This document shows, piece by piece, positions 9,470 to 44,650 of a stretch of 64,000 nucleotides of DNA; the first letter of the stretch is position 1, and each line of letters opens with the position of its first letter. The translations under genes and the position numbers were made by a program. Source of the DNA: Escherichia coli (GTDB lineage: Bacteria > Pseudomonadota > Gammaproteobacteria > Enterobacterales > Enterobacteriaceae); NCBI RefSeq assembly GCF_013315695.1, contig NZ_CP054353.1. One strand, 5' to 3'. The notes beneath the pieces were generated by a model, which was given only the letters and a program-made list of their open reading frames with translations, ran no database searches and was not told the origin of the DNA.

Positions 9470-9473
9470 AAAG

Positions 9474-9680: not shown

Positions 9681-9715
9681 AACCCCGGTATCTGCTGATA
9701 CCGGGGTTTCTCTTT
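9681..9715. terminator. Perfect 11-bp palindromic hairpin flanked by A-rich and T-rich tracts (bidirectional terminator-like)
   Basis: AACCCCGGTAT-ctgctg-ATACCGGGGTT followed by TCTCTTT. Confidence 0.35.
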
Positions 9716-9812
9716 AGCATGGCAGAAATGTGTTTCATGCTTTTCGGGCGAAGGATATCCGACTTCTGTACGGAATGGCAAGTGGCGGTTAATTTATTCA
9801 GGGGAAGGCTGT

Positions 9813-12800: not shown

Positions 12801-13505
12801 CAGGCCGATCGCATTGCGATGATTACCCCGGAGAACGGCAACACCACGCCGCTGTTTGTGGCGCAGGGGAATCAGCTGTTCATGAACGACGTGTTCCTGA
12901 AGCGACTGTTTGCGGTGAGCATCACGTCATCCGGCAATCCTCCGACGTTTTCCCTGACGCCGGATGGCAGGCTGACAGCCCGCAATGCGGATATCAGTGG
13001 AGCCATCACGGCGAATACCGGCACGCTCAATAATGTCACCATTAACGAGAACTGTGTCATCAGAGGGAAACTGTCTGCAAACCAGATTGAAGGCGATCTC
13101 GTTAAAACAGTGGGTAAGGCTTTCCCCCGTGACTCCCGTGCACCGAAGCGTTGGCCATCAGGAACCATTACCGTCAGGGTTTATGACGATCAGCCGTTTA
13201 ACCGGCAGATTGTTATTCCGGCGGTGGCTTTCAGCGGTGCCAGACATGAGCGGGAGAACAGCGATACTTATTCGTCATGCCGCCTGATAGTGAAGAAAAA
13301 CGGTGCTGAAATTTATAACCGTACCGCGATGGATAATACGCTGGTTTACAGTGGTGTTATTGATATGCCTGCTGGTCGCGGCCACATGACGCTGGAGTTT
13401 TCTGTATCAGCATGGTGGGTAAATGGCTGGTATCCCACAGCAAGTATCAGCGATTTGCTGGTTGTTGTGATGAAGAAAGCCACTGCAGGCATCACGATTA
13501 GCTGA
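9813..13505 (+). CDS. J: Host specificity / central tail fibre protein J
   Basis: 1230 aa; N-terminal 850 aa and C-terminal 270 aa colinear with lambda gpJ; extra coiled-coil segment in between. Confidence 0.95.
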
Positions 13506-13523
13506 ATTTTATAACCCCAATAC

Positions 13524-13548
13524 GGGCGCCAGAAATGGCGCCTTTTTT
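13524..13548 (+). terminator. Rho-independent terminator after J
   Basis: GGCGCC-agaaat-GGCGCC stem then TTTTTT. Confidence 0.6.
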
Positions 13549-13572
13549 ATTGCAGAAAAGCGAGAGGTAATT

Positions 13573-14172
13573 ATGCGTAAATTATGTGCAGCCATTTTGT
13601 CCGCAGCCATCTGTCTGTCCGTATCCGGTGCGCCTGCATGGGCGTCTGAACATCAGTCCACACTGAGCGCGGGGTATCTTCATGCCCGTACGAACGCTCC
13701 CGGCAGCGATAATCTGAACGGGATTAACGTGAAATACCGTTATGAGTTTACGGACACGCTGGGGCTGATTACGTCCTTCAGTTATGCCAATGCTGAGGAT
13801 GAGCAAAAAACGCACTACAACGATACCCGCTGGCATGAAGATTCCGTGCGTAACCGCTGGTTCAGCGTGATGGCGGGGCCGTCTGTACGCGTGAATGAAT
13901 GGTTCAGCGCGTATGCGATGGTGGGTGTGGCTTACAGCCGTGTGTCGACTTTCTCCGGGGATTATCTCCGCGTAACTGACAACAAGGGGAAAACGCACGA
14001 TGTGCTGACCGGAAGTGATGACGGTCGCCACAGCAACACGTCTCTGGCGTGGGGGGCTGGCGTGCAGTTTAACCCGACCGAATCCGTGGCCATTGATATT
14101 GCTTATGAAGGCTCCGGTAGTGGTGACTGGCGCACTGACGGTTTCATCGTGGGTGTCGGTTATAAGTTCTGA
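13573..14172 (+). CDS. lom: Outer membrane protein Lom (Ail/PagC family)
   Basis: 199 aa; nearly colinear with lambda Lom including signal peptide. Confidence 0.9.
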   Translation: MRKLCAAILSAAICLSVSGAPAWASEHQSTLSAGYLHARTNAPGSDNLNGINVKYRYEFTDTLGLITSFSYANAEDEQKTHYNDTRWHEDSVRNRWFSVMAGPSVRVNEWFSAYAMVGVAYSRVSTFSGDYLRVTDNKGKTHDVLTGSDDGRHSNTSLAWGAGVQFNPTESVAIDIAYEGSGSGDWRTDGFIVGVGYKF

Positions 14173-14198
14173 TTAGCCAGGTAACACAGTGTTATGAC

Positions 14199-14225
14199 AG
14201 CCCGCCGGTTCAGGCGGGCTTTTTT
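14199..14225 (+). terminator. Rho-independent terminator after lom
   Basis: AGCCCGCC-ggttca-GGCGGGCT stem then TTTTT. Confidence 0.65.
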
Positions 14226-14236
14226 GTGGAGTGGAT

Positions 14237-16303: not shown

Positions 16304-16578
16304 GAGATTTCACGTTGCGTTTCAGTGATAAAGCAGATTTCAGGGCATTTCTCAGGAAACTTAACTGGGAAGAGGACGAAGAGCTGCAGAATGCCGTTCT
16401 GGTTGATGAGATTGGTTTTACGTTCAGGGAGACAGATGTTTCTGATGACGGAGAACCAGAATACACGCGAAACGAAGGGTACTTTGTTAATATCCGTCTT
16501 CTTGACGATGGATTTGATGATTCCGTGTTCCGTGAGTGGGTGGTTACACCAGAGCGCCCGCTCAGGGAGTGGTTTTAA
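16300..16578 (+). CDS. Hypothetical acidic protein (92 aa) downstream of stf
   Basis: ORF overlapping stf stop by 4 nt (translational coupling); occupies the tfa position but is shorter and unlike lambda Tfa. Confidence 0.4.
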   Translation: MRDFTLRFSDKADFRAFLRKLNWEEDEELQNAVLVDEIGFTFRETDVSDDGEPEYTRNEGYFVNIRLLDDGFDDSVFREWVVTPERPLREWF

Positions 16579-16587
16579 GGATAGCAG

Positions 16588-16875
16588 ATGGATATCACGT
16601 CGATACTTCATGCGCTTTGTGCCGTAGCGGTGCAGGTACTGGCTGGTCTTTTTACCGGAAACTGGGCTTACGGTGCGATAGCCGGTTGTACGTTCTTCAT
16701 TGCGCGTGAACACACCCAGGCAGAATATCGCTGGATTGAAATGTTTGGGCATGGCAAGAGGATTAACATGCCGTGGTGGGGCGGTTTTGATCCGCGCGTG
16801 TGGGATGTGGCAAGCCTGATGGATTTTGCTGTGCCGGTGGTGGCGTGTCTGCTGATCTGGATGTTGATCCGTTAA
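16588..16875 (+). CDS. Hypothetical small membrane protein (95 aa)
   Basis: Two predicted hydrophobic segments at N- and C-termini; last ORF before att. Confidence 0.4.
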   Translation: MDITSILHALCAVAVQVLAGLFTGNWAYGAIAGCTFFIAREHTQAEYRWIEMFGHGKRINMPWWGGFDPRVWDVASLMDFAVPVVACLLIWMLIR

Positions 16876-17224
16876 ATATAAAAAGTAAAAAGCCGCAGTA
16901 ACTTGTCATGACAGGATACTGCGGCTGGCTGGTTAACTTTCGATAGTGCGAGTATTGAATGATTTCCAGCTGTTACTGATTTTATATAACTGCAGTGGAA
17001 TTATTCAACACACAGGCAAAACGGAATAAGCTGAGAAAAAAAGCGTGCTTTCCCAATCTGGGGTAAATCACATCTGAATGACACCTGAAAACAGGTGGTG
17101 GCCTCAAGAAGGCTTGGAATATTCTTCTTTAATGTTATGTAATTTATTGATTTTTCGTGTACGATTTTAAGACATTTATTCCAAGAAAAATTTTTAACTC
17201 TTTGATTTTTCGACTCTGTATCAT

Positions 17225-31834: not shown

Positions 31835-32626
31835 GTGCAGCACGAGACAAAAATGGAAAACCAGAGCTGGTTGAAAAAACTCGCACGCCGCCTGGGGCCT
31901 GGTCATATCGTTAATCTCTGCTTTATCGTGGTATTGCTTTTTTCCACCTTGCTCACCTGGCGTGAAGTGGTGGTGCTGGAAGATGCCTATATCTCCAGCC
32001 AGCGTAATCATCTGGAAAACGTAGCCAACGCGCTCGATAAGCATTTGCAGTATAACGTCGACAAACTGATCTTTTTGCGTAATGGCATGCGCGAAGCTCT
32101 CGTGGCGCCACTGGATTTCACCTCTCTGCGTAATGCCGTAACCGAGTTCGAACAGCATCGCGACGAGCACACCTGGCAAATCGAACTCAACCGACGGCGC
32201 ACCCTGCCAGTCAATGGCGTATCGGATGCATTAGTCAGCGAGGGGAATCTCCTGTCTCGCGAAAATGAAAGCCTCGACAATGAAATTACCGCTGCACTGG
32301 AAGTTGGTTACTTGCTGCGACTGGCGCACAACTCCTCGTCGATGGTTGAACAGGCGGTGTATGTCTCGCGTGCTGGATTTTACGTTTCGACGCTGCCGAC
32401 CTTGTTTACGCGCAATGTACCAACGCGTTATTACGGCTATGTCACCCAACCCTGGTTTATCGGCCATTCACAACGAGAAAATCGTCACCGCGCGGTACGC
32501 TGGTTCACTTCGCAACCGGAACACGCCAGCAATACTGAACCGCAGGTTACCGTCAGTGTTCCGGTAGACAGTAATAACTACTGGTTGATCAGACATGAGA
32601 TAAATGAAGGGGGATCCGTGAGATAA
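31835..32626 (+). pseudogene. dgcQ: Diguanylate cyclase DgcQ (YedQ), 5' fragment only (periplasmic sensor domain); truncated by prophage insertion
   Basis: About 264 codons matching the DgcQ N-terminal region, then a premature stop in phage-derived sequence; no TM or GGDEF domain follows. Confidence 0.8.
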
Positions 32627-32628
32627 AT
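32596..32628 (+). repeat. Two direct copies of TGAGATAAAT, 23 bp apart, at the prophage left terminus (candidate transposase-binding end repeats)
   Basis: Copies at 32596-32605 and 32619-32628, immediately after the point where the dgcQ frame diverges. Confidence 0.4.
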
Positions 32629-32781
32629 AACGAATTGGAGTGGGTTAACATGGGTTCTGGTGAACAGAACTGAAATTCTTTTCCGCTATACGATAGATAA
32701 GTCGGGCATTGAAATCATCCTTCCTGGCAACTTAGAATCGAGTTTGCTGAAACATGACCCGTAACAAAAAGGATGATTCCA

Positions 32782-32943
32782 ATGACTACTCAAAACAATA
32801 AGCATGACAGCCTGGATTACTCAGAAAAGCCCAAAAGCAAGCACATTGTGACGTTCGAGCGCGATTCCGGTAGAAAAGGAGAATCGTCTTCCTCTGCCAA
32901 TAAAACCACTATGCCGGCAGCTCCTGCTCCAGGGAAAAAATAA
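32782..32943 (+). CDS. Hypothetical small hydrophilic protein (53 aa)
   Basis: ATG with AAAGGA-like RBS 8 nt upstream; below the ORF-track length cutoff; no recognisable similarity. Confidence 0.25.
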   Translation: MTTQNNKHDSLDYSEKPKSKHIVTFERDSGRKGESSSSANKTTMPAAPAPGKK

Positions 32944-32946
32944 ACA

Positions 32947-33579
32947 TCATTCATCGTTCGTTGCACGAACGCGCCTGATCTCCACTCTGGCAATCTGATC
33001 TGCTGGAATATAGGTTGCCAGAGCTCCCCAGTACTTATCAACCACGCCTTTATACTCTTCCCATTCGTTACTTCCTGAAGGGCTGCTGTGCGTGACGTAA
33101 AGAACCATATCGCCTTTATTTCCCAGGGTAAACGGACCGTTAGGCCACTCTTCAAAGTTCCCTGGCAGCCGTGACATCATACCGGAACCATCGCGAAGAA
33201 TCACTCTGACCTCGGTGACGCTGAAGCCTGTTTGATCAAACATTGCCTGCCATGCTGAGCTGGTATTGTCAGACCATGAAATATCATTATTCCACAGTAA
33301 TCTGTACATCCATTTGCGACCGTACCTGCGCCACCACGCACCGCATGTAACGGCACACAGAAGTGCTGGGGGGGTTGCCAGCCAGGCATTCAGACCTGCC
33401 CACATAACAGCCTGGTAAGCCATCATTGCTGTCAGGCCAAAAATCAGCGAAGAAAAAGTCACCTCAATGGGTTTGTGGTGATCCTTCAGCCCCACATTCG
33501 CAATAAAATACCCAATATAGCCACTGGTCAGGGTCACCAGTGTTGCCCATGGCAGATTTAATAACGAAACGTCAAACAT
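32947..33579 (-). CDS. Hypothetical membrane protein (3 N-terminal TM segments plus about 110-aa soluble C-terminal domain), terminal gene of early operon
   Basis: Start set at ATG 33579 preceded by GGGAGA; ORF track gives 33657. Confidence 0.6.
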   Translation of the reverse strand: MFDVSLLNLPWATLVTLTSGYIGYFIANVGLKDHHKPIEVTFSSLIFGLTAMMAYQAVMWAGLNAWLATPPALLCAVTCGAWWRRYGRKWMYRLLWNNDISWSDNTSSAWQAMFDQTGFSVTEVRVILRDGSGMMSRLPGNFEEWPNGPFTLGNKGDMVLYVTHSSPSGSNEWEEYKGVVDKYWGALATYIPADQIARVEIRRVRATNDE

Positions 33580-33693
33580 ATTTTCTCCCGGCATCCTGAA
33601 TATTACATAGAGAGCATAAAAAAAGCACGGTAAAGGGTCTACCGTGCTCTTATACAATAAGGAGATTTTTGAAAGGACTTTAACAAGCAGGAA

Positions 33694-34092
33694 TTATCTG
33701 GATTTGTTAACGTCTTTCGTCTCCTCTGGCAGATCTTCATCAAACAACCTGCCCTGCATCCGATCCAGTTCTTCTTTTCTGACCCGCTTAACCACGCTGT
33801 AGACCCACTGAAGCGAAACACCAAAATTGCGGGCCAGTTCGTGGTGGTTGCGTCCGTTAAACTCCCTGAAGATTTCCCGGTCGCGCTGACTGACCTTCCA
33901 TACCATGCCCATCGGGAAATAAACGTTTTGCCCGCCCCAGACCTGCATCATTCGGTTCGCGACGGCCTGACCAATCTGGTCGGCAATTGCGGGCTCAATA
34001 TCAATAATCTCGCGAACGGTCTCAGAGGTATGCTGTGCCAGTTCCACCAGGAGTTCCGGCCCTTTACTTCGAAACTGATTCAGGTCGCTCAT
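33694..34092 (-). CDS. mor: Mor/C-family transcriptional activator (middle/late gene activator)
   Basis: 132 aa; C-terminal HTH ...ELARNFGVSLQWVYSVVKR... typical of the Mu Mor/C family. Confidence 0.7.
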   Translation of the reverse strand: MSDLNQFRSKGPELLVELAQHTSETVREIIDIEPAIADQIGQAVANRMMQVWGGQNVYFPMGMVWKVSQRDREIFREFNGRNHHELARNFGVSLQWVYSVVKRVRKEELDRMQGRLFDEDLPEETKDVNKSR

Positions 34093-34555
34093 GTTTTACT
34101 CCCGCAGCTCTGCGCTGCCACTTCTTCAGTTTCTCAATAACACTGCTTGCCTGTTCAGTATTGAGCCAGCGCAGGGCGCTGATGCCCGTTTCCCGCTTGA
34201 TCCACCGCGCTAATGCATTTTCTGAACGGTCACGAACAATGCCGGCAGCAGCCATTTCAAGCCATAGCGCACGGATTTTCCTGGACTGCGGATGGTTATC
34301 CAGCGGTAAACCGGAGCTGGCTTTTCTGGCAGGCTTAACGCGAAAGCCTTTCCTTTTCATGGATTCCAGCACGCAGTTTAGTTGTGTGGTATCCATTCCT
34401 TTGGTTGAGGCTTTACCGGTCAGCCCCTGTAACATCTGGCGGTAGGTGTCTTCATCCATACCCAGTTCATTACGGGCAATATGAATGAGCTGGATAAGAC
34501 GTTGTTTAGTCATCATCGTTGCTCCTTTTACCTGCGCCACCGATATAATCGACAT
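34064..34555 (-). CDS. gemA: GemA-like protein (Mu gp16 family, DUF1018)
   Basis: 163 aa; similarity to Mu GemA/gp16-type proteins. Confidence 0.65.
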   Translation of the reverse strand: MSIISVAQVKGATMMTKQRLIQLIHIARNELGMDEDTYRQMLQGLTGKASTKGMDTTQLNCVLESMKRKGFRVKPARKASSGLPLDNHPQSRKIRALWLEMAAAGIVRDRSENALARWIKRETGISALRWLNTEQASSVIEKLKKWQRRAAGVKHERPESVSK

Positions 34556-34877
34556 ATAAAGGAAGCGCCACAGGCCAGCACAGGAACATCACCGACCAGC
34601 TAATCCAGTAGCCGGCACCACTGTAACGTGAATAAAACCCTGAACGGCGGTGCAGTTCAGCAGTACACCAACCGACAAAACAATACCAGAACAGGGCACA
34701 TACAACAGATTCAGCCGTCATTCTGAATATCCCCCCAACTGATATGAATATTACGGGCAGCAATGACAGGGTCGTTATTCCACCATGCACCTGACATGTA
34801 TTTTTCAACCTGTTCGCGTCCGGCAATAACACCAATTGTGATCCCCGGCCTGACGTTCTTAAAAAAGGCGCGGGCAA
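34506..34877 (-). CDS. Hypothetical small membrane protein (real start probably the internal Met, about 71 aa)
   Basis: Hydrophobic ORF in the early-operon orientation overlapping the gemA 5' end. Confidence 0.3.
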   Translation of the reverse strand: MPAPFLRTSGRGSQLVLLPDANRLKNTCQVHGGITTLSLLPVIFISVGGIFRMTAESVVCALFWYCFVGWCTAELHRRSGFYSRYSGAGYWISWSVMFLCWPVALPLYVDYIGGAGKRSNDDD

Positions 34878-34937
34878 AAAGGTATCTGGCAGATATTCGG
34901 CAGGCTTTTAATTTCCGGCTGTTACCTGATAGCGTAA

Positions 34938-35657
34938 TCATCTGGCCTCCAGTTTCTGTTGTTCCTGCCCACTGACCGGGCGGTGCAGTCTGACGTTCTG
35001 CCCTTCACGAAACCCCGCATAGCGCGAGGCGTCGCCATTGCGGCTTCTTCCCGGTTTACGCGCCCTGGTGGTTTGCGTCTGCGGGTATTTATGTTCCAGC
35101 CACTGCTGCATCAGTTCACGCTCATCATCGGTCAGGGCAAAGGACTGTATTTCACTGATAACGGCCAGCACCCAGCCTTCGGCAAACTGGTCTCCACGGC
35201 TGGTGCGGGTGGCGGTTTTTATTCTTTTGTTCTGTGCACTGATATACTGCTGACGCGCCTTTTTCAGCTGACGGGCCAGCACTTCCCAGGTGTATGCAGC
35301 CAGTGCCGCACGTTCCCGGTTGCCGTAGAACCCCACAGACGGGTGCGTGCCGGGGTGAATGATGGAGTTAACACCAAATACCTCGCGGATGATGTTCATC
35401 AGGCCCAGCATGTAGCGCGGTGGACGGAGACTGCCTGTCGGCCAGTAGTGACTGATGGTTTCATCAATATCACTCATAGCAATGTCGGAATGTGTGATGC
35501 CGTGAACATCCATCAGTTTACGGGCTCGGCGCAGTGCCAGAGCGGCCTCGTGCGGGTTGCCGGATGCGGCCAGCGCCAGCAACTTTTTCAGTTTCTCAAT
35601 GTGTTTATTCTGGTCTGTCATTGTTCTGTATCTCCGGTATTTTTCTGCCGTTTCCAT
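34938..35657 (-). CDS. DUF2786-like early protein
   Basis: 239 aa; N-terminal KLLALAASGNPHEAALALRRARKLM motif typical of this Mu-like prophage family. Confidence 0.5.
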   Translation of the reverse strand: METAEKYRRYRTMTDQNKHIEKLKKLLALAASGNPHEAALALRRARKLMDVHGITHSDIAMSDIDETISHYWPTGSLRPPRYMLGLMNIIREVFGVNSIIHPGTHPSVGFYGNRERAALAAYTWEVLARQLKKARQQYISAQNKRIKTATRTSRGDQFAEGWVLAVISEIQSFALTDDERELMQQWLEHKYPQTQTTRARKPGRSRNGDASRYAGFREGQNVRLHRPVSGQEQQKLEAR

Positions 35658-35833
35658 GCCCGGACAGCGTCGGACAGCTCTTTCAGGCTGTATGCTGCTT
35701 TAAGCTTTTCCCATAACCACTGTGTTGTTATGTGCATCAGCAGGGCAGCCAGGGCTGCCCCCGCACTGAGGCATGTCGCCAGGCCAGTAAGAATCAGTGT
35801 CCATGCGGTGATTTCCCTGAGTATGTCAGCCAT
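35618..35833 (-). CDS. Hypothetical small membrane protein (71 aa)
   Basis: One TM segment; in operon orientation. Confidence 0.4.
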   Translation of the reverse strand: MADILREITAWTLILTGLATCLSAGAALAALLMHITTQWLWEKLKAAYSLKELSDAVRAWKRQKNTGDTEQ

Positions 35834-35847
35834 TGAATGCCTCCCGG

Positions 35848-36144
35848 TTACTCGTTCGTGTAAATCACGCCCAGTCGTGCAGCCAGACGTTCCAGTTTTT
35901 TCTGTTTGTGGAAGTCAATCAGCCGGTCCATCCCCTGAAGGCGCAGTTGCTCTGTCATGATTTCCACGTCTGCCAGCTCTGCCGCGAGGTCACTTTCGCT
36001 GCCCTGTCCGTTCAGGTTGCGGGCGGCACTGGCCGCCAGTTCAGCGGCCTCTTCTGCCAGTTTCAGGGCCTGTGCGTCCGGCCCGAAACGCTGCAGGGCC
36101 AGACGGTAGAGGGCGGTGCGGGTGAGTTCGGTGTTTCGTGTCAT
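35848..36144 (-). CDS. Small MazG-like nucleotide pyrophosphohydrolase domain protein
   Basis: 98 aa; ...LKLAEEAAELAASAA...ELADVEIMTEQL... resembles the MazG/HisE-type helical NTP-PPase core. Confidence 0.5.
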   Translation of the reverse strand: MTRNTELTRTALYRLALQRFGPDAQALKLAEEAAELAASAARNLNGQGSESDLAAELADVEIMTEQLRLQGMDRLIDFHKQKKLERLAARLGVIYTNE

Positions 36145-36153
36145 GCCGCGCCC

Positions 36154-36426
36154 TCAGTGCTTCCGGCTGACGGTGATGTGCAGGCCGCCTTCTGCAGTGG
36201 TTTCCATCCGGTACGGCACCTCATGCTCTGCCGTGTGGGTGAGTGTGTTCATCAGTACCTGCAGGGCAGCCTCCTTTCCGTTGGTCGCCACAATGGCCTG
36301 TGTGGCCATGCTGATTAGCGCCGTCAGGACGTGATTCACATCGGTGAGGTCGCGGCATTCACACTCGTTGACATAGTGTTCAACAAGGGTTCGGGTGCGC
36401 TGTCGTGCTTCCTGTGGGGTAATCAT
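36154..36426 (-). CDS. Hypothetical protein (90 aa)
   Basis: ORF in early-operon orientation, compact spacing. Confidence 0.4.
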   Translation of the reverse strand: MITPQEARQRTRTLVEHYVNECECRDLTDVNHVLTALISMATQAIVATNGKEAALQVLMNTLTHTAEHEVPYRMETTAEGGLHITVSRKH

Positions 36427-36617
36427 TGCGCGTCCTCCCTGTCAGGGCGGGAGAATTCCATGACGGGCACGTCCGCCGAAAAATGCTGGCTGCAGTACGG
36501 GCAGACCAGGGTGACACGTACTGCAGGTATGTGATACTTACCGGACATCACGGCGATGGCGCTGTGAAAACGCAGGGCTGTTATATCCCTCTCGCACTGA
36601 ATACATTTAAATATCAT
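36423..36617 (-). CDS. Small zinc-ribbon protein
   Basis: 64 aa with CxxC (CIQC) ... CPYC motifs. Confidence 0.45.
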   Translation of the reverse strand: MIFKCIQCERDITALRFHSAIAVMSGKYHIPAVRVTLVCPYCSQHFSADVPVMEFSRPDREDAQ

Positions 36618-36714
36618 AATTTAATTCTCCTCTGTTTCCGGCGTGCAGAAGCCCACGGCGCTGACGCCGGAATAAAAAAGAAAATGTTTTTATTAAATAA
36701 TTAACGTGGTGTGT

Positions 36715-37245
36715 TTACTGCACATCCTGCTCAAAAGGAATTATTGAAAAATCCTCAATGTCGCTTTTAATGGAAATACCGGGAATATTTTTCACGGCCT
36801 CTTTTTCATTCAGAATGGCATCTTTATTTATTTCCTCCTTTACACGAATAAAGCGCTCAAGCCCCAGACGTCTCAGCAGTTCAATGACATTATCCGCCCC
36901 GCGAATGCTGACTGACGGCGGACGGTTTCGCCACTGCACCTCGCCGGTGGTGAGGTTAGCGAACTTCACCTTCCCGTTGCCGGTCAGTTCATCACGGTGC
37001 GCCTCACACCATGTCTGGATACCGGACTGCAGTTCGGCCATGCGTTTTTTCAGGCTCTCGGTGAGCGGGGCATAACGTGCAGTGATGTCGCCAATGGTGT
37101 CATTCATTTCTGTTTCAGCCCTGACCAGTTCACGTTGCGCGTCACCAAGCAGTCTGATTCCCTCAATGACCTCTTCGCGTGTCCCCGGCACCCAGAGTGC
37201 TGCTGCGGCTTTGATACGTTTTGCCCCTTTTGTACTTTTTGCCAT
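36715..37245 (-). CDS. gam: Host-nuclease inhibitor Gam (Mu Gam / Ku-like)
   Basis: 176 aa; near-colinear with Mu Gam (MAK...KRIK.AAA...ETEMND...GKVK.ANL.TG.V.WR.RPPSVSIRG...FIR.K.EINK.AIL...EDFSIIPFEQ). Confidence 0.95.
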   Translation of the reverse strand: MAKSTKGAKRIKAAAALWVPGTREEVIEGIRLLGDAQRELVRAETEMNDTIGDITARYAPLTESLKKRMAELQSGIQTWCEAHRDELTGNGKVKFANLTTGEVQWRNRPPSVSIRGADNVIELLRRLGLERFIRVKEEINKDAILNEKEAVKNIPGISIKSDIEDFSIIPFEQDVQ

Positions 37246-37272
37246 ATTTTATGACTCCTCCTGTTGTGCTGA

Positions 37273-37542
37273 TTACCACAAAGATTCCGGCCACACGACG
37301 CGACAGCCGTGCAGTTCGAAAACGCCCTGACGGAAATATCCCCTGTGGTCATGTCCGGTATACAGATAACAGGCCTTTCCCTGCTCAAGCATGCGCATGC
37401 AATGCGCACTCCGGGAAACGCGGATGACAGGTTTGTTACCCCTGATGGTGATGCTTTGTACATCCGTGTTCGTCGCCTTAAGCGCCATAATGGCTGACTG
37501 CACTTTGCTGATTTGCTGGTTGATACCTGTGGTGGATTTCAT
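37273..37542 (-). CDS. Hypothetical protein (89 aa) in the kil-region position
   Basis: ORF between B and gam. Confidence 0.4.
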   Translation of the reverse strand: MKSTTGINQQISKVQSAIMALKATNTDVQSITIRGNKPVIRVSRSAHCMRMLEQGKACYLYTGHDHRGYFRQGVFELHGCRVVWPESLW

Positions 37543-37544
37543 TA

Positions 37545-38711
37545 TTAAACCCCTTTGACAACGTCAGCGTTGACCTGTGGAACCCCGATTTCAGCGGCCA
37601 GATTCATGGCGGCTATCACCAGGTTACTGACGGCCAGCGGATACAGCAGGCTGACCATATTTTTACGATGACTTCCCGGATTGCTCAGGCGGGCACGTAT
37701 GGCATCCACTGCGCTGGCGTCCATAATGTCCGTCAGTTGTTTACCGGCCCGTTGCAGTTTGAACGTCAGAAATTCTTCAAGGTTATTGTCCAGAGGCAGA
37801 AGTTCGACCACCTCACAACGCTGAACGACTTCACGGACTTCCATATTGCGTTCAGACAGTTTTGTCGCCAGTTCCGGCTGGCCAATCAGCACGATGGACA
37901 GCAGTTTTTTGAAACCGGACTCCAGCTCAAAAAAGCGTTTGAGGTGTTTCAGTGTCGGAATGGGCAGACTGTGGGCCTCCTCAATCACCAAAACGTGGCT
38001 GAACCCCGCCTGGCTGCTGTCTTTCAGGACGCGATGCAACTGGCGAAAGCGGGCGTCCTGACTGCGTCTGATGCTTTCCAGTGGTGCGATGGTACTGATA
38101 ATGGCTTCGGCAATCGCTGCTGCCTTCAGGGTTTTCCCTTTCACATCGTTGTCTTCCATAGCGATGATGTATGGCTCGATAACAATTACCGGCGCATTCT
38201 CGCGGTTGATACGTTCAGTCAGGTCGCGGCGCAGCGTGGATTTACCCGCACCGGACTCACCGATGACGGCCATAAACCCACCATGACGGGCTGTCTGGTA
38301 CAACGCCTCACGCACGTAGCGAATGTCCGGGGTGGTGAACACATCATCAGAACCCTGCATGGCTTCATCGGCGAACGGGTCACGGAAAAGACCAAACGCT
38401 TTTTTGGTTGCTGGAAATAACACCTGTTTTTTGAGTAACATATTCTCTTCCTCACTGAGGCTCGTTTTATCTGTGGTACCCGCTGTACGGGGCGTGGCTG
38501 CGCCCTGTACAGCATCAAAACTCTTCGTTGTATCAATCCCCTGACTTTCCAGCCAGGACGCAAGACGCCGGCGCACTTCTCCGGGGCTGGTGCGGGGCCA
38601 CGCGTTATGATTCACAATCTGGGCCAGCGTGGCCTCAGAAACATCGACAGCTCTCGCCACCACCGCCTGTGGGATACGGGCCTCTTTCAGTTGCTGCTTC
38701 AGTACCAGCAT
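37545..38711 (-). CDS. B: Transposition ATPase B-like (AAA+, TniB/ExeA-type Walker A GESGAGKST)
   Basis: 388 aa from ATG 38711 preceded by GAGGAGG; N-terminal HTH-like segment, central P-loop ATPase; immediately downstream of transposase. Confidence 0.7.
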   Translation of the reverse strand: MLVLKQQLKEARIPQAVVARAVDVSEATLAQIVNHNAWPRTSPGEVRRRLASWLESQGIDTTKSFDAVQGAATPRTAGTTDKTSLSEEENMLLKKQVLFPATKKAFGLFRDPFADEAMQGSDDVFTTPDIRYVREALYQTARHGGFMAVIGESGAGKSTLRRDLTERINRENAPVIVIEPYIIAMEDNDVKGKTLKAAAIAEAIISTIAPLESIRRSQDARFRQLHRVLKDSSQAGFSHVLVIEEAHSLPIPTLKHLKRFFELESGFKKLLSIVLIGQPELATKLSERNMEVREVVQRCEVVELLPLDNNLEEFLTFKLQRAGKQLTDIMDASAVDAIRARLSNPGSHRKNMVSLLYPLAVSNLVIAAMNLAAEIGVPQVNADVVKGV

Positions 38712-38721
38712 GTTTTCCTCC

Positions 38722-40491
38722 TCAGTTGCCGTTAACAATGCTGATAACACTGCTGCGTGCCGGCGTGGTCAGCGTGGCCATGACTTCATCCAGTGCAGCT
38801 TCCGGTACGCCGTCCGGGTACTGTGCCGTTAACTGGCGGTAATGTTCCGGCGTCCAGGTAAGGCCGTCGGCGCTGAACTTATCGCGCAGGGCTTTCGCGG
38901 CCTCCACATGAGTCATGGGACGTTGTTCAGTGCGCGGCCCGCGTACGTCAGAGGCCTGACCACGCTTCGGCATATAGGCCGGAAGTGTGGTGTCGTCGAT
39001 ATGTTTATACGGGTCAAGCCGCCCGCCGAACGGCAGCGCCTTCGCCTTGCGTGCGGCGGCTGCATCTGCGGCGTTGTCTGTACCGGTAACCAGCGCTTCA
39101 GTTTCTTTTGCCGCCATCTGTGCCGAGGTTTCCGGCAGGGCTTTGTAACTTTCGCCAAATACCGCCGCGCCTTCAGCAAAGCCAAACTCGTTCTTTCTGA
39201 CCTCTTCGACCAGGAAGAACGTCTCGTGGCCGTCCTCACCGGTCAGAACCACCTGTGCCACATCGCTGCGCCATGGGTTACGGGTAATCATCAGTTTTTC
39301 ACCAACCAGTACGCCCGGTACCGTTGATACGTCAAATTCAGTGCCCCGGAACGAGACACGAAGTTTTGGCGTGACTTTGCGGAGTTCTGGTGCCGCCACA
39401 GCCAGTTCACGACATACCTCAACGGAAGGCGCTTTTTTCAGCTGCTCAGCAGTAATCTTCAGCCAGATATCCGTGCGGGTTTTACCGTGGCGGCTGTGAA
39501 CAGCCGTGGCGTTAAAGTGGCTGCGCCATTTCGCGGCCAGCGCGTTGAGTTCTTCCAGACTGTGAACCGGCCGGAACTTCAGCCCCGGCTCCAGCTTGCG
39601 TTCGATAATGTCACGCGCCTTTTCCACCTGTCCGGTGGCGCGGGCGTTATGCGGCTTGTGCGCTATCAGGTCGATGCCCAGTGAGCGGCACATGTTTTTC
39701 GTCATACCCGCGGTGTTTGCCGAGCCGGGGTCGAGATAGAGTATTTTCGGCACGCCGTGCAGCACGTCTGCGCCGCCACGCTCCTGCATGGCGTTGATAA
39801 GCACAGAGCACAGGTTCTCACCTGATTCCGCGCCCGTCACATACTCAACGTAAATCCAGCCGCTGGCATGGTCGGTAATCTCGTAACTCCACACGCGGTC
39901 ACTGGCGATACGGGCAAGGTTAGCGGGCTTGTTCTTGTAGAACTTCGCGCTGTCCATCACCTGCAGCCCTTTATGTCCATTGCTCAGGTAGTAAAGCGTG
40001 CAGAGTGAGGCGTCAATCTGCCAGACATGATTGGGATGCAGACTGGCCACTTCGGTATGTGGTGCAGGGGCATCCAGTTGTTCCGGGTGCAGGCCATAGT
40101 TACGCAGAGCACGGCTGATGGCATCTTCAGACAACGGGAAAAACTCACTGGTGGTTTCATCTGTTCTGCCTGCGGTGATAAAGCCGTTAGCCCGCAGGGT
40201 TTCCACTGCATCTGCGATGGAATAGAGACGCTTACCGTTCTTGCGGGTGGCCTCACGCAGTGTGGCAGATATCAGCGCGGCTTCGTCGCGGGTCAGGGCG
40301 CTGCGCCCGGCATCGGCGCGTTTTTTGCGTTTATCAGTCACAGAGACCTCCTTCAGCCTGCGCAGCAGAGTGGCGCGGGACATGCCAAGTTCAGCACAGG
40401 CAGCGTCGTATATTGCACCGCGTTTACCATGCCCCGCGTCACGTGCCGCGCGGGCGACATAAACCAGTCGTTCAGTCAGGGCAGCATTCAT
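38722..40491 (-). CDS. A: DDE transposase (Mu A-like, integrase-fold catalytic core)
   Basis: 589 aa; N-terminal HTH, central core with HVWQIDASL-type first Asp region, C-terminal domain. Confidence 0.75.
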   Translation of the reverse strand: MNAALTERLVYVARAARDAGHGKRGAIYDAACAELGMSRATLLRRLKEVSVTDKRKKRADAGRSALTRDEAALISATLREATRKNGKRLYSIADAVETLRANGFITAGRTDETTSEFFPLSEDAISRALRNYGLHPEQLDAPAPHTEVASLHPNHVWQIDASLCTLYYLSNGHKGLQVMDSAKFYKNKPANLARIASDRVWSYEITDHASGWIYVEYVTGAESGENLCSVLINAMQERGGADVLHGVPKILYLDPGSANTAGMTKNMCRSLGIDLIAHKPHNARATGQVEKARDIIERKLEPGLKFRPVHSLEELNALAAKWRSHFNATAVHSRHGKTRTDIWLKITAEQLKKAPSVEVCRELAVAAPELRKVTPKLRVSFRGTEFDVSTVPGVLVGEKLMITRNPWRSDVAQVVLTGEDGHETFFLVEEVRKNEFGFAEGAAVFGESYKALPETSAQMAAKETEALVTGTDNAADAAAARKAKALPFGGRLDPYKHIDDTTLPAYMPKRGQASDVRGPRTEQRPMTHVEAAKALRDKFSADGLTWTPEHYRQLTAQYPDGVPEAALDEVMATLTTPARSSVISIVNGN

Positions 40492-41969: not shown

Positions 41970-42052
41970 TGTTGTCTCCTTTGTTGATGCAATGATGTTT
42001 GTTTTATATGTGATAGATTATGAGAACTATTGTTCTCATTGTCAATGAGGTT
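41970..42052. promoter_or_regulatory. Divergent early/immunity control region with 20-bp palindromic operator candidate ATGAGAAC-tatt-GTTCTCAT (42020-42039)
   Basis: AT-rich intergenic region between divergent regulators; perfect 8-bp inverted repeat. Confidence 0.5.
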
Positions 42053-42481
42053 TGTGTGAATTTTGATTCTCTTTGCGCGTCGCGGTTCAAAGCTGAGCGT
42101 TCGCGGTTATCACTCAAGCAGGCTGAAGTAGCAGCCCTTTGTGGCGTTTCAAGAGAAATGTGGGGGAAATATGAACGAGGGGTTGCTGTTCCCGGAGGTG
42201 AGTTACTTGCAGCCTTTGCAAGAATTGGGGCCAATGTACAGTTCATTCTTACCGGGGAGTCATCAGGTATAACTTTATCACGTGATGAAATGGAGTTACT
42301 GCAGCACTACCGGCAGGCACCATTACAGGTCAAAGGTTCAGTTTTGTCGGCCTTGACTACTGGCTCCTCCAGAGAACGGGCGGAACAGGTTATTCATGGA
42401 GATGTTCTGGGGAATGTTATCAAAGGTAACGTAACCATAGGAACAGGTGGAATAATGAACAAAAATACCAAGAGAAGATGA
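42053..42481 (+). CDS. XRE-family HTH repressor (putative prophage immunity repressor)
   Basis: HTH ...LSLKQAEVAALCGVSREMWGKYERG...; start proposed at GTG 42053 (GAGG 5 nt upstream); ORF-track ATG 42020 lies inside the palindrome. Confidence 0.6.
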   Translation, partial: CVNFDSLCASRFKAERSRLSLKQAEVAALCGVSREMWGKYERGVAVPGGELLAAFARIGANVQFILTGESSGITLSRDEMELLQHYRQAPLQVKGSVLSALTTGSSRERAEQVIHGDVLGNVIKGNVTIGTGGIMNKNTKRR

Positions 42482-43464
42482 GTAAAGAGAAGCAAACAGT
42501 TAACGGGGATGTGGGTAACGTTGTCAGCGGTGATGTTACCATTCATAACTATTCTGCTGACATACTTCCTTCGGCCCAGCAACCAATTTCGTTGCTGCAA
42601 AAACGCGATTTACACAGATTGATGGATGAATTGGTTGATCTGGGGGAAAGTAAGCGCGAGCTATGGATGACGATCCACACGAAACTTAATACCAAAACAG
42701 TTAATGAAATGACTGCGGCTGATTATCATGGTGCGGTTGAGATCCTTCAGAGATATGCACAACAGATCCAGAATATGAAGGACTGTAATCTTCTGGTCAG
42801 CAAAATAATGGCGCTTACTGACCCTGGGTATCGTCTTGACCGTGACAGATACTGTCTGAAGCATTTCGGTACAACCCATCTTAAAGGCCTAGACAAAGAG
42901 CAGTTGCAGGCTGTGTTTGGTTATTTTGATGATCTGCTGAATATTCGTGATGAGAGTAAAACTCTATCACCTCCATCGGAAAGCGGTGCAAAATCAGTCG
43001 CAACTGTACCAACCAGAAGCCGGAAGCCTCATGTAGTAGTGTTGGGGGGAGTGTTAGTTCTTGTAGCAATATTTTTCGTGGGAATGATTGTGTTCGCTGG
43101 TAAATGGGGAAATGCCAAAGCAGTAGCTTCTACTGAAACCAGCGTTTTTAACATTAAAACCAACGATAAAATAATAGAAGATTCCATCCCCGCACTGCGC
43201 AGCATGTTTCCAGGGTTAAATAAGTACTCAGATGATTTCCATTCGGTTTCAAGCTACAAGCAAAAAACGGGCTGGCATACCCTTAAATTTACTGTATCAG
43301 CAAAGGCATCCGTCCCCGAAAATTATAGTGTTAAGGGCAAGGTTTGTTACATTAACATAAGCCCTGATGGTAGTTATGCTCGGGTTTTGACTGCTCCATG
43401 TCGTTCACTGCTACTTGATCAGCAAAGCACTCCTGACAGTAAATACCGTTTTATTCTTAAATAG
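42478..43464 (+). CDS. Hypothetical single-pass membrane protein (328 aa), translationally coupled to the repressor
   Basis: ATGA start/stop overlap with repressor; about 175-aa cytoplasmic N-domain, TM (VVVLGGVLVLVAIFFVGMIVFA), about 120-aa C-terminal domain; no recognisable family. Confidence 0.6.
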   Translation: MSKEKQTVNGDVGNVVSGDVTIHNYSADILPSAQQPISLLQKRDLHRLMDELVDLGESKRELWMTIHTKLNTKTVNEMTAADYHGAVEILQRYAQQIQNMKDCNLLVSKIMALTDPGYRLDRDRYCLKHFGTTHLKGLDKEQLQAVFGYFDDLLNIRDESKTLSPPSESGAKSVATVPTRSRKPHVVVLGGVLVLVAIFFVGMIVFAGKWGNAKAVASTETSVFNIKTNDKIIEDSIPALRSMFPGLNKYSDDFHSVSSYKQKTGWHTLKFTVSAKASVPENYSVKGKVCYINISPDGSYARVLTAPCRSLLLDQQSTPDSKYRFILK

Positions 43465-43545
43465 AAAATAACAGCTGAATTACCATGGGATCAGAAAAAA
43501 GACAAAGGCGGCATCATGCTGCGTTCTGAAATTTTAATGTAAAAG

Positions 43546-44136
43546 GTGATGAACATGGCAGGGATTCAGGTTATCGCAGGAAGTTTTCCTAAAGGGTGGG
43601 CAAGCATGGGGTTCGGTACCATCGTGTTTGCCAAAAAAACAAAACAAGGCTTTCCTGAAAATATTGTATTAAATCTGAAAGAAGAGCTTTTATCGATTGA
43701 ACTTGCGGATAGTGAAGAGGAAAGCCGTATAGGTAAGGCGGCAGGCGCAGGTTTGCTTGGTGGATTAATCTTTGGTGGTGCAGGGTTGGTCATTGGAGGT
43801 TTGCTTGGTGCGGCGGACAAGACGAAAAAAACTATCACTTTTAAGGCAATGTTTACGGGAAATAGGTTACTTCTGGCTAAAACAGATTCAAAAACTTTTG
43901 TAAAACTTCAGTCAATTGCTGCTGATAATGCCCATAACGCATCTGTAATCAACATGAAGCAAACTAATAGGGGCGATGTTTCTTCTCGTAAACAACTAAC
44001 AGAAAATCCACAGCAGCAAGACTTACCTGCGCCCGCTACAACAGTAAAAATGACTGCCAAAGATAAGTTAGAATCGGCTCTTGGGCTGGGAATCATCGTT
44101 ATAGCTGTTTGGGCAATAATACACTTCTTTTTTTAG
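43546..44136 (+). CDS. Hypothetical glycine-zipper membrane protein (196 aa)
   Basis: Central GxxxG-rich segment AAGAGLLGGLIFGGAGLVIGGLLGAA and C-terminal TM LGLGIIVIAVWAIIHFFF. Confidence 0.55.
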   Translation: MMNMAGIQVIAGSFPKGWASMGFGTIVFAKKTKQGFPENIVLNLKEELLSIELADSEEESRIGKAAGAGLLGGLIFGGAGLVIGGLLGAADKTKKTITFKAMFTGNRLLLAKTDSKTFVKLQSIAADNAHNASVINMKQTNRGDVSSRKQLTENPQQQDLPAPATTVKMTAKDKLESALGLGIIVIAVWAIIHFFF

Positions 44137-44173
44137 TGCAGCCCTTCAGGGCTGTTTCTGTTCAGGAGGTATC

Positions 44174-44650
44174 TTAAGGATTATCCGGGGCGTTTTCCTG
44201 TTTGCCGTACTTCGGAGACGAACAACATTCTGTTGGCTGACCGGTGAGTTTACGTAACTCCTTCATGAGCAGCTCCTGATCGTAAACTGTCATCAGTGCC
44301 GCAATGGTGGCATGCAGTGCATCGGGCAGTATCCAGGGTTGCCGGCCCGTGGGGCATATAACATCCAGCAGCTCATTCGTCCGACAGATACGCTCCTCGC
44401 CGTATGACAACAGGCCCTGTCCCGTGTATTCCTCTAGCCTGATCACTGTGCCACCCCGTGGCTTCTGCCAGGTCGTCAGATCTTCGCCATTCATACGGCG
44501 CTCATTCTCCACGTCAGCAGCATCGACAATGACGCTGTTTCCGAGTTCCTGTTTCACCATCTCTTCTATCCGCGCCAGTACGTAACTTTTACCGCTGCCC
44601 ACAGGACCGGACACAGTGACAGTGATGACCGGATTCAGTGTGTGCGTCAT
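44174..44650 (-). CDS. Small P-loop NTPase (158 aa), function unknown
   Basis: Walker A GPVGSGKS at residues 25-32, Walker-B-like VIVDAAD; convergent with the membrane protein genes. Confidence 0.55.
   Translation of the reverse strand: MTHTLNPVITVTVSGPVGSGKSYVLARIEEMVKQELGNSVIVDAADVENERRMNGEDLTTWQKPRGGTVIRLEEYTGQGLLSYGEERICRTNELLDVICPTGRQPWILPDALHATIAALMTVYDQELLMKELRKLTGQPTECCSSPKYGKQENAPDNP

Follow-up and report, generated by a model that had tools for sequence, protein, structure and literature searches.

The left end of a BcepMu-type prophage in dgcQ of Escherichia coli and its optional two-gene cassette

The interrupted dgcQ gene and the phage ends

We analysed a stretch of 64,000 nucleotides from an Escherichia coli genome (NZ_CP054353.1), here called the window, in which phage genes follow the first part of dgcQ, encoding a diguanylate cyclase. 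The features at and around the junction are:

31835–32585, plus strand: 5' fragment of dgcQ (codons 1–250 plus 1 nt), by comparison with the intact dgcQ of strain SK1144
32580–32585, plus strand: left copy of a 6-bp target-site duplication, ACTGGT (dgcQ nt 746–751); the hexamer recurs after the right phage end in the sister genome L001
32586–64000 (window end), no strand: BcepMu-type transposable prophage; its full 37,491 bp would end at about 70076
32586–32628, plus strand: left terminus, 5'-TG, then two transposase-site repeats TGAGATAAAT at 32596–32605 and 32619–32628
32653–32671, plus strand: terminator-like hairpin with T-rich tail, lying past the end repeats and ahead of the promoter of a small ORF (pattern scan)

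Alignment to the intact 564-codon dgcQ (L056) covered 751 nt, from the GTG start given by RefSeq (31835) to position 32585, with 3 mismatches. The gene is cut after nt 751 (codon 250), between 32585 and 32586. A sequence-only reading of the window had placed a prophage inside dgcQ and had proposed this alignment; exact mapping on the intact gene bears it out. The same reading had the dgcQ match extend for about 264 codons. This is correct as the length of the chimeric ORF, in which 13 phage-derived codons and a stop follow the junction, but not as homology, which ends at codon 250. The fragment keeps the first transmembrane segment and roughly two thirds of the sensor domain in the periplasm; the second transmembrane segment and the GGEEF domain lie outside the window. 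In intact DgcQ, the transmembrane windows begin at residues 20–31 and 355–362 and GGEEF is found at residue 477. As the first transmembrane segment and most of the sensor are split from the second segment and the GGDEF domain, now 37.5 kb away, dgcQ is inactivated. RefSeq labels the gene as a partial pseudogene in L001. None of the papers found links dgcQ with prophage insertion.

The right phage end and the 3' part of dgcQ were read from L001 (NZ_OZ547117.1), a near-identical complete genome which differs from the window at 4 of 32,978 aligned positions. It contains the whole 37,491-bp prophage (1564–39054 in L001), without pseudogenes, and the remainder of dgcQ. ACTGGT occurs once in intact dgcQ. 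A target duplication of 5 bp had been expected; it was 6 bp in all three independent insertions (ACTGGT in dgcQ, ACATGG in gudD and TCTTCG in zraS). In these three, the phage begins with TGATCAG... and ends with ...GCGCATCA. For the strain studied here, we predict a right end of ...GCGCATCA followed by ACTGGTATGG, and a junction of ...GTGCATTTATCGCGCGGCGCATCA / ACTGGTATGGCGTGC.

Two direct copies of a 10-mer, 23 bp apart at the junction, had been taken for transposase-binding end sites. Both are present, at phage positions 11–20 and 34–43, so that they start 23 bp from each other and the outer one lies 10 nt inside the phage end. The window holds two exact copies of TGAGATAAAT, the chance expectation being about 0.1 copies in 128 kb of two-strand sequence by our own arithmetic; allowing one mismatch adds only two more, which are distant and within chance. 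The inverted copies that were to be sought at the right end were both found in L001. In reverse complement this end reads TGAT-N7-GCGATAAATG-N11-GTGCGATAAAT, in the same register as the left end, with both sites inverted, the distance of 11 nt and the spacing of 23 nt retained, and a closing ...CA-3'. Sites of the form G[AC]GATAAAT are thus located 11 and 34 nt from either terminus. The left end of BcepMu, TGAAGAGAGG-TGAGATATTT-N13-CGCGATATTT, has sites in matching positions, and the ST131-type variant of the phage has the same end layout as this prophage. From these sequence comparisons, we identify the two 10-mers as the pair of sites that the transposase binds in this phage family.

The hairpin at 32653–32671 may keep transcription of the dgcQ fragment from continuing into the phage. 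It is also kept in an orphan plasmid copy of the phage end.

Matches to the left end start at 32582–32586 in dozens of genomes and at different loci. More than 10 insertion loci were seen, including gudD, zraS, ptsP, yfiB, xylR and a site beside ycaL. Insertion is near-random with a short target duplication, as expected for a BcepMu-type phage. The phage type is present in about 12% of the complete E. coli genomes, at many different sites; the dgcQ insertion occurs in only four complete genomes. These four (H1–H4) are all of human origin, AF3 being a blood-culture isolate.

Relationship to BcepMu and Mu

Phage genes of the left arm that could be assigned are:

33694–34092, minus strand: mor, late transcription activator of the Mor/C family, homologue of BcepMu gene 1 (phrog_532, RefSeq name, BcepMu annotation)
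34064–34513, minus strand: gemA/gp16-family gene, homologue of BcepMu gene 2 (phrog_286; RefSeq coordinates transferred from L001)
36715–37245, minus strand: Gam-like host-nuclease inhibitor (phrog_491)
37545–38711, minus strand: ExeA-family AAA ATPase, predicted transposition helper, counterpart of BcepMu gene 8 (phrog_296)
38722–40491, minus strand: DDE (rve) transposase of BcepMu/B3 type (Pfam rve, E 3e-8)
42020–42481, plus strand: HTH repressor-like gene in the position of BcepMu gene 17, where the leftward early and rightward late arms diverge

The gene order from 33694 to 42481 matches BcepMu genes 1–17, and the left arm is collinear with genes 1–12. As in BcepMu, a leftward early arm runs from Mor and GemA to the ExeA-like ATPase, TnpA and a Ner-like regulator, followed by the divergent repressor. 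The transposase is 68% identical to BcepMu TnpA (gp9; 98% of length), which is annotated as 'Tn552/IS1604 rve transposase', and 56% identical to that of B3/JBD25. Its sole significant Pfam match is rve. Mu was absent among the 69 phage records matched at E<=1e-10, and a search of solved structures (E<=0.01) did not yield a MuA chain. A published account of BcepMu-type prophages gives them TG...CA termini and a Tn552-related Rve transposase (PMC2628397); the prophage in dgcQ shares these termini as well as the two 10-bp left-end repeats at positions 11–20 and 34–43. PhiKM, an E. coli relative classified as a Bcepmuvirus, is 98% identical over 33734–36600. Mu-like head genes are combined with P2-like tail genes, as in BcepMu and PhiKM, and a complete lysis cassette (holin, SLT transglycosylase and spanin) is located elsewhere in the phage. 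Two differences were seen: the uncharacterised genes between the repressor and the lysis genes are a different set from those of BcepMu and PhiKM, and a cassette of ~1 kb is present between the left end and mor, a stretch that is free of genes in BcepMu and in the majority of E. coli copies.

With Mu, the phage shares the character of a transposable temperate myovirus, almost random insertion with inactivation of host genes, TG...CA ends with repeated transposase sites, homologues of Mor, GemA and Gam, and, at the right end, a Gin-like invertase together with a tail-fibre segment that can be inverted. It differs from Mu in the duplication (6 bp instead of 5 bp), in a transposase which is not MuA-like by sequence, and in its P2-like tail genes. 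Furthermore, Mu has its repressor, ner, A and B at the left end, read rightward, whereas here the transposase lies 6.1–7.9 kb inward and is read towards the left end, and mor is end-proximal. The earlier description as 'Mu-like' is therefore right in that the phage is transposable, but it is not Mu proper; 68% TnpA identity and the collinear left arm make it BcepMu-type.

The proximity of mor to an end looks odd against Mu, in which mor is about 9 kb from the left end. The junction at 32586 might accordingly be a scar, left when a deletion or rearrangement in a defective Mu-like remnant brought mor near its edge. In the BcepMu prototype, however, mor is gene 1 and lies beside the left end. Moreover, the identical end sequence adjoins many different host genes, and between the matching inverted ends, bordered by the 6-bp duplication, lies a 37.5-kb genome that is complete and free of pseudogenes. 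We rejected the scar because of the multiple host loci, the matched ends, the intact genome and the BcepMu layout, and consider its probability negligible. The prophage is a 37,491-bp Bcepmuvirus-like myovirus that integrated into dgcQ by DDE transposition and thereby duplicated ACTGGT.

The cassette between the left end and mor

The features between the end repeats and mor are:

32709–32738, plus strand: sigma-70-like promoter TTGAAA-18-TAGAAT (10 of 12), upstream of the 53-aa ORF
32782–32943, plus strand: gene of a small protein of 53 aa, hydrophilic and rich in proline, convergent with the 210-aa gene (phrog_15726)
32947–33579, minus strand: 210-aa predicted inner-membrane protein, distant relative of DUF6338 (AlphaFold2 model, family relatives)
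33621–33651, minus strand: predicted intrinsic terminator after mor, 14-pair stem and T run, 42 nt ahead of the 210-aa start codon

The cassette is about 1 kb long and consists of two convergent genes (210 aa and 53 aa), the coding regions of which are 3 nt apart. It is absent from the ST131-type copy, from BcepMu and from about 80% of the E. coli relatives. The mor–gemA region was found in 639 genomes (616 at a coverage of at least 80%), the cassette in only 117. Accordingly, the distance from the phage end to mor is 163 bp in the common (ST131-type) variant, which is without the cassette, and 364 bp in BcepMu. The cassette is optional cargo of the phage. The 210-aa gene had previously been proposed to be a moron, and its optional presence, in 117 of about 620–640 E. 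coli phage copies, agrees with cargo. As for a promoter and terminator of its own, which characterize a moron, a sigma-70-like promoter was found for the small ORF; for the large gene, no promoter was recognised and a terminator precedes it. Identity as a BcepMu-type prophage, the mapped ends and the cargo nature of the cassette are, taken together, very probable.

In the sister genomes, RefSeq lists the products of both ORFs as hypothetical. The prediction of a 210-aa minus-strand ORF after mor (32947–33579), with three transmembrane segments and a soluble domain, was confirmed. Both genes are under purifying selection (dN/dS about 0.11 each). The value is 0.115 for the 210-aa protein; for the 53-aa ORF, compared with the copy in strain 3-72, it is 0.107 (12 synonymous and 6 nonsynonymous changes) and exceeds 1 in the other frames. 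By this coding signature, both are real genes. The 53-aa ORF had been noted simply as lying between the 210-aa gene and the end; it exists, but is a conserved partner of the 210-aa gene and not a bystander. A convergent small ORF of 44–63 aa accompanies the large gene in 17 distinct variants, including alphaproteobacterial phages and integrative elements, metagenomic loci and non-Mu contexts. Two loci (L042 and L058) have the large gene without a recognisable small ORF. The cassette was also found in an unrelated siphophage, inside its head-tail module, and next to HicB and Rap1a genes in an element with primase and integrase. Across the contexts outside this phage, the antitoxin-type neighbours include HicB and SocA/Panacea genes.

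The promoter of the small ORF points inward from the phage end. Its two hexamers recur unchanged at the corresponding site of a Klebsiella relative (L010); in a Serratia relative (L008), the promoter reads TTGTAA-17-TAGAAT. A scan for a sigma-70 promoter of the 210-aa gene recognised none, and the gene may thus be expressed only by lytic read-through. Expression restricted to the lytic phase would fit a role in the phage cycle as well as one in protecting the lysogen. The gap between the convergent coding regions leaves no room for a terminator. With the coding regions 3 nt apart, the transcript of the small gene must run antisense into the large one.

We also considered the hairpin after mor as a Mor-binding dyad of a Mor-dependent promoter for the large gene; a TAATAT -10 element suggests a start site, which the centre of the hairpin precedes by about 43 nt. 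This was rejected. The dyad has no second copy in the window, and neither the lysis operon nor the head operon is preceded by one. In the Klebsiella relative, a terminator occupies the matching position before the large gene, and as this hairpin is unrelated in sequence, the structure is better explained as a terminator than as a Mor dyad.

The AlphaFold2 model of the 210-aa protein has three helices (residues 11–27, 37–60 and 65–97) and a beta-rich domain (119–205), which is modelled as a small beta-barrel of the Sm/SH3-like type. The positive-inside rule predicts an N-out/C-in topology, so that the barrel is probably cytoplasmic. Neither cassette protein matched PADLOC, NCBIfam or Pfam; in PHROGs, both matched only families without an assigned function, and their RefSeq accessions are not mentioned in any paper found. 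The window copy of the 210-aa protein had no Pfam match even at E<=10. Among its homologues, 9 of 32 close and 4 of 49 distant ones match DUF6338 (PF19865) at E<=0.001, a family of similar size and membrane character. At this threshold no other Pfam family is matched, except Phage_holin_9 by one distant member (E 8e-4). In the literature searched, DUF6338 was found only in a proteomics survey of small proteins on an unrelated topic. The family profile gave nothing below E 0.7 against the sequences of solved structures. In a viral fold library, the sole significant match of the protein was one uncharacterised protein; matches to its transmembrane part were mostly holins, at E values of 0.05–1, which are not significant. 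Longer family members (P0159, P0201 and P0169) were inspected for fused domains and discarded, the extra parts being low-complexity sequence or mis-called starts.

The 53-aa protein has no Pfam match and no named homologue. Its family has a conserved C-terminal PxxPx(K/R) motif resembling an SH3 ligand. A complex of the two proteins was modelled with AlphaFold2 as a fusion via a (GS)15 linker, using a locus-paired alignment of 16 pairs. In this weak test (shallow alignment, without PAE), the small part had a pLDDT of 28–40 and formed only a low-confidence strand of 5 residues, so that the model lends no support to direct binding of the two proteins.

In its general design, with transmembrane helices at the N-terminus joined to a small soluble beta-barrel, the 210-aa protein resembles the S-2TMbeta effectors Cap15 of CBASS and OptE of Panoptes. 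Cap15 and OptE bind a ligand through the barrel, and both disrupt the inner membrane (PMC12657218). Among the AFDB structural neighbours of the 210-aa model, one (rank 18, TM-score 0.75) bears the annotation S-2TMbeta effector. However, the 210-aa protein has three transmembrane helices instead of two, and its partner is a protein of ~50 aa instead of a synthase. Neither Pfam S_2TMBeta nor a PADLOC effector was matched by the 210-aa protein or the 81 homologue rows, and no nucleotide cyclase (CD-NTase or mCpol) was found near the cassette in the E. coli, Klebsiella, Serratia, Bradyrhizobium and metagenomic neighbourhoods examined. The resemblance is one of design, not of membership.

Possible functions and biological meaning

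We tentatively suggest that the cassette may be a two-component accessory module benefiting the lysogen or the phage. The 210-aa protein would act as a membrane-perturbing or entry-blocking effector. The 53-aa gene would be expressed constitutively and restrain the effector via RNA, protein or both, until a disturbance such as infection by another phage, loss of the prophage or its induction sets the effector free. More specifically, three transmembrane helices with an Sm/SH3-like barrel and a partner of ~50 aa could constitute an undescribed two-component membrane effector (abortive infection, exclusion or toxin-antidote), a portable unit of unrelated phages and integrative elements across Proteobacteria; we regard this version as unlikely. 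The cytoplasmic barrel would then be kept inactive by the SH3-ligand-like motif of the small protein, the antisense transcript, or both.

Phages are known to encode proteins for superinfection exclusion, such as T4 Imm, P22 SieA and HK97 gp15. An inner-membrane protein at the prophage end which is optional among close relatives, and the gene of which moves among unrelated phages and mobile elements in the usual pattern of exclusion genes, might likewise block DNA entry or an inner-membrane receptor, the small protein being a regulator or an unrelated neighbour. Exclusion requires expression in the lysogen, and this is not evident for a gene without a recognised promoter that a terminator cuts off from the early operon; the tight and ancient linkage to the small ORF favours a two-component mechanism. 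We consider simple exclusion unlikely. The cassette could also be an addiction module, in which a membrane toxin and an unstable small antidote (protein and/or antisense RNA) stabilize the prophage or element. The 3' transcripts of the convergent genes must overlap across the 3-nt gap, a strong and conserved promoter was recognised for the small gene but none for the large one, and antitoxin-type neighbours (HicB, SocA/Panacea) occur in other contexts. Yet type II toxin-antitoxin genes are co-directional and co-transcribed, with the antitoxin usually first, while the cassette genes are convergent, an order and orientation atypical for such systems. Type I antitoxins are RNAs, but the small product is a conserved protein. 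The fused AlphaFold2 model did not contain a confident interaction, and transposable prophages are not lost by excision, so that they would gain little from addiction. We consider an addiction module quite unlikely.

A role of the 210-aa protein in the lytic cycle, in holin/antiholin-like lysis timing or membrane remodelling, would account for its position directly downstream of mor, on the same strand and without a recognisable promoter, expression being due to early/mor read-through. The holin-like matches of its transmembrane part (E 0.05–1) and the Phage_holin_9 match of the distant member point in the same direction, although the former are not significant. However, the phage already has a full lysis cassette, and the gene is missing in about 80% of the E. 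coli relatives and in BcepMu and present in non-phage integrative elements, which makes a lytic role improbable. An accessory module of effector and restraining partner, tentative as it is, is the reading we prefer.

For the strain, the insertion removes one diguanylate cyclase out of the twelve that are active in E. coli. Because excision of transposable phages is imprecise, the loss is probably permanent in this small clinical clone. In K-12, DgcQ adds to the overall pool of c-di-GMP and aids infection by phage N4 to a minor extent, and deletion of dgcQ has mild effects only (PMC8669469). RefSeq names the dgcQ product a cellulose-biosynthesis regulator. Biofilm, cellulose and motility phenotypes of the strain may differ; by analogy with the K-12 data, the effects would be modest. 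The phage type, present in about 12% of complete E. coli genomes, hits a different gene in each lineage and so is a widespread natural mutagen. Neither the prophage nor the kind of event that placed it in dgcQ is out of the ordinary. The main product of the analysis is the cassette, a conserved and mobile two-gene unit which recurs in unrelated phages. Cassettes distributed like this have often proved to be defence or competition systems.

The prophage in dgcQ and its ends

We mapped the junction against the intact 564-codon dgcQ gene of strain SK1144.

31835–32585, plus strand: 5′ part of dgcQ, 3 of 751 nt differing from the intact gene

Homology ends after nt 751 (codon 250), and the frame runs on for 13 codons in foreign DNA to a stop at 32626. 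The prophage junction in dgcQ proposed in a sequence-only reading was thereby confirmed, with true homology ending at codon 250 rather than at about 264. The membrane segments of intact DgcQ start at about residues 20–31 and 355–362 (simple hydropathy), and GGEEF is at residue 477. The gene is thus broken within the periplasmic domain, and TM2 and the catalytic domain are cut off; DgcQ is lost in this strain. A strong phenotype should not be assumed: deletion of dgcQ in K-12 lowers N4 plating about tenfold and, for motility, only adds to the effects of dgcJ and dgcE in a pdeH mutant background (PMC8669469).

The window stops short of the far end of the element. The same junction was found in four complete E. 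coli genomes, and isolate AF3 (NZ_OZ547117.1) differs from the window at only 4 of 32,978 aligned positions. In the AF3 locus the foreign DNA occupies 1564–39054 (37,491 bp) and has 56 coding genes, not one of them marked as a pseudogene; dgcQ resumes directly beyond it. ACTGGT closes the left and opens the right flank, being present once in intact dgcQ (nt 746–751); elsewhere this phage sits between copies of ACATGG (in gudD) and of TCTTCG (in zraS). Given these flanks, the target duplication is 6 bp, in contrast to the 5 bp of Mu, which had been expected here.

The element begins with 5′-TG and ends with CA-3′. TGAGATAAAT has exactly two copies in the window, at 32596 and 32619. In the AF3 locus the 9-mer G[AC]GATAAAT lies at distances of 11 and 34 nt from both termini, on the plus strand at the left and on the minus strand at the right, with just one more copy outside the termini in 45.5 kb. 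When the left end, the right end in reverse complement and the left end of a diverged copy are aligned, nothing but these two blocks is conserved. BcepMu has the same layout at its own left end, TGAAGAGAGG-TGAGATATTT-N13-CGCGATATTT. Because of the inverted copies and the BcepMu layout, the repeats are terminal transposase sites of the phage family, as had been suspected from the left junction, with a search for inverted copies at the right end suggested as a check. The prophage entered dgcQ by DDE transposition.

From the left end, a minus-strand arm encodes Mor, GemA, several small proteins, DUF2786, Gam and an ExeA-family ATPase, then a 589-aa transposase, DUF3102 and a Ner-like regulator. 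A repressor-like gene points rightward, as do, beyond a variable region, the lysis, Mu-like head and P2-like tail genes. This is the order of BcepMu genes 1–17 and differs from that of Mu. The transposase, whose Pfam match is to rve alone, is 68% identical to BcepMu TnpA and 56% to that of Pseudomonas phages B3 and JBD25; no match to MuA was detectable among solved structures. E. coli phage PhiKM, classified as Bcepmuvirus, is 98% identical over 33734–36600, and the KS10 paper gives BcepMu relatives TG...CA termini and a Tn552-related Rve transposase (PMC2628397). The prophage is thus a transposable phage, as first read, but of the known BcepMu type and not Mu proper.

Of 5,426 complete E. coli genomes, 639 contain the mor-gemA-DUF2786 region. 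The genes that left-end matches adjoin are many and varied: they include gudD, zraS, ptsP, yfiB and xylR, a fimbrial gene and genes for type II secretion, and in ST131 the site is beside ycaL, as expected of near-random transposition.

Several further observations concern the element and its surroundings. Its right end, beyond the window (37250–38976 in the AF3 locus; 36311–37893 in another copy, L004), has a gene for a Gin-like serine recombinase, together with a tail-fibre/assembly segment whose orientation varies between genomes, an invertible host-range segment like that of Mu. The recombinase gene points outwards, to the dgcQ 3′ fragment, so that read-through transcription of the fragment is possible. 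A plus-strand hairpin with a T-rich tail (32653–32671), just inside the left end and 5′ of the small-ORF promoter, could keep transcription that starts in the interrupted host gene out of the prophage. Roughly the first 145 bp of the left end (32595–32739) recur, with about 90% identity, on about 105 large plasmids of E. coli; those listed measure about 165–290 kb and come from avian and human isolates. The plasmid copy examined (L014, 4001–4144) contains the two transposase sites together with the hairpin and the small-ORF promoter region; such copies have no phage genes attached and adjoin IS3 and IS1 debris. The stretch resembles an orphaned phage end that became fixed in a lineage of plasmids.

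Between the repressor and lysis genes there is a further region of variable cargo; in two other copies of the phage (L003, L004) it encodes a DNA adenine methylase along with another set of small genes.

Within 42478–44650: 328-aa protein, phrog_10002, weak N-terminal similarity to Flk
Within 42478–44650: 196-aa protein, phrog_12025
Within 42478–44650, minus strand: 158-aa P-loop protein, phrog_3787

In the window, two prophages flank a chromosomal segment of about 15 kb that runs from zinT to dgcQ. The other, lambdoid, prophage (1–16900, ending beside zinT) encodes capsid, tail, tape measure, a J-like tip protein and a tail fibre; its left part differs from the AF3 genome by indels (78-nt coordinate offset).

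13573–14172: Lom/Ail-family outer-membrane protein of the lambdoid prophage

A two-gene cassette between the left end and mor

Two convergent genes, with 3 nt between their coding regions, lie between the left end and mor.

32782–32943, plus strand: 53-aa ORF (small)
32947–33579, minus strand: 210-aa ORF (large)

The 1.1 kb between left end and mor is present in only 117 genomes; the common variant has 163 bp from the phage end to the mor stop codon. In BcepMu, mor is gene 1 and starts 364 bp from the end, and relatives in the phage collection match solely from 33734 on. Approximately 32630–33734 is therefore optional cargo. Compared with the copy in strain 3-72 (inserted in xylR; dS about 0.45), dN/dS is 0.115 for the large ORF and 0.107 for the small one (12 synonymous and 6 nonsynonymous changes), and above 1 in the remaining frames of the latter. 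To judge by these ratios, both ORFs, already noted by the sequence-only reading, are real protein-coding genes, inherited together.

The small ORF has a sigma-70-like promoter (TTGAAA-18-TAGAAT, 10 of 12 matches), with identical hexamers in Klebsiella and TTGTAA-17-TAGAAT in Serratia. A 14-pair hairpin with a T run ends mor, 42 nt ahead of the large gene, and Klebsiella has a hairpin of other sequence at the same place. No promoter for the large gene was recognisable in its upstream sequence. Since the 3-nt gap leaves no room for a terminator, each transcript must by geometry run antisense into the other gene; we infer a consequence of this overlap. The hairpin 32653–32671 is also kept in the orphan plasmid copy.

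The large gene lies 3′ of GemA-Mor in 32 of 37 viral-contig loci, and in Klebsiella and Serratia it is the final gene ahead of the prophage end. Distant contexts are as follows.

L053: between head and tail genes of a siphophage
L049: after a head-protease gene
L016: primase/integrase element, beside HicB-, Rap1a- and Arc-type genes
L058: adjoining a SocA/Panacea gene
Bradyrhizobium chromosomes
L015, 9001–9726: Synechococcus phage Ssp-JY41, record positions 1–744, extreme end

The Ssp-JY41 protein (29% identity) is the sole homologue in the deposited-phage collection; the 20-kb record also encodes a primase, and its sequence stops just past the gene. Among loci with downstream sequence, 17 distinct sequence variants have a convergent ORF of 44–63 aa, ending −128 to +43 nt relative to the stop codon of the large gene; it is absent only from L042 and L058. 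The small proteins are hydrophilic and fast-evolving, with no Pfam match or named homologue. Common to them are M[TS]xx[KN]N at the N terminus, a [DN][YF]-[ST]-E-x-P-K or repeated N-[YF]-x-P-x-T motif, and a C-terminal PPxP, after which K or R often comes.

The large protein and the possible role of the cassette

The large protein has no match in Pfam, NCBIfam or PADLOC and belongs to the uncharacterised family phrog_12870. Its family comprises about 500 clusters at 50% identity, uniform in length (about 205 aa), a minority of members matching DUF6338 weakly. The AlphaFold2 model (mean pLDDT 81) predicts helices at 11–27, 37–60 and 65–97 and a beta domain at 119–205, in agreement with the three TM segments and soluble domain first proposed. 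Loop 1 (KDHHK) and the stretch following helix 3 (WWRRYGRKWMYR) are positively charged, and the N-terminal tail and loop 2 carry no positive charge, which argues for an N-out/C-in topology with a cytoplasmic barrel. The close structural neighbours in AFDB50 are all uncharacterised, with one annotated as S-2TMbeta effector and a few as DUF421. Across 32 homologues, with identities as low as 38%, the invariant positions include H35 (loop 1, predicted cytoplasmic), D104 (linker) and the barrel residues D157, Y161 and T163, along with the LPW motif that opens helix 1; at least 90% of the sequences have H164. The invariant polar residues suggest a ligand or metal site at the membrane–cytoplasm interface.

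The cassette might be an effector-plus-regulator module, which we propose tentatively and regard as rather doubtful. In Cap15 and OptE, TM helices are fused to a soluble barrel controlling membrane disruption (PMC12657218). The large protein resembles them in design, but without sequence match, with three helices instead of two and without a cyclase partner; its membership of this group thus failed on sequence, helix count and cyclase linkage. Direct binding of the proline-rich tail to the SH3-like barrel would be an appealing mechanism, but received no support from a linker-fused AlphaFold2 run. Alternatively, the cassette could exclude incoming phages, act as an addiction module or serve the lytic cycle of the phage itself. 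Apart from the effector-plus-regulator proposal and these alternatives, the cassette is an uncharacterised, portable two-gene unit, and merits a simple experimental test.
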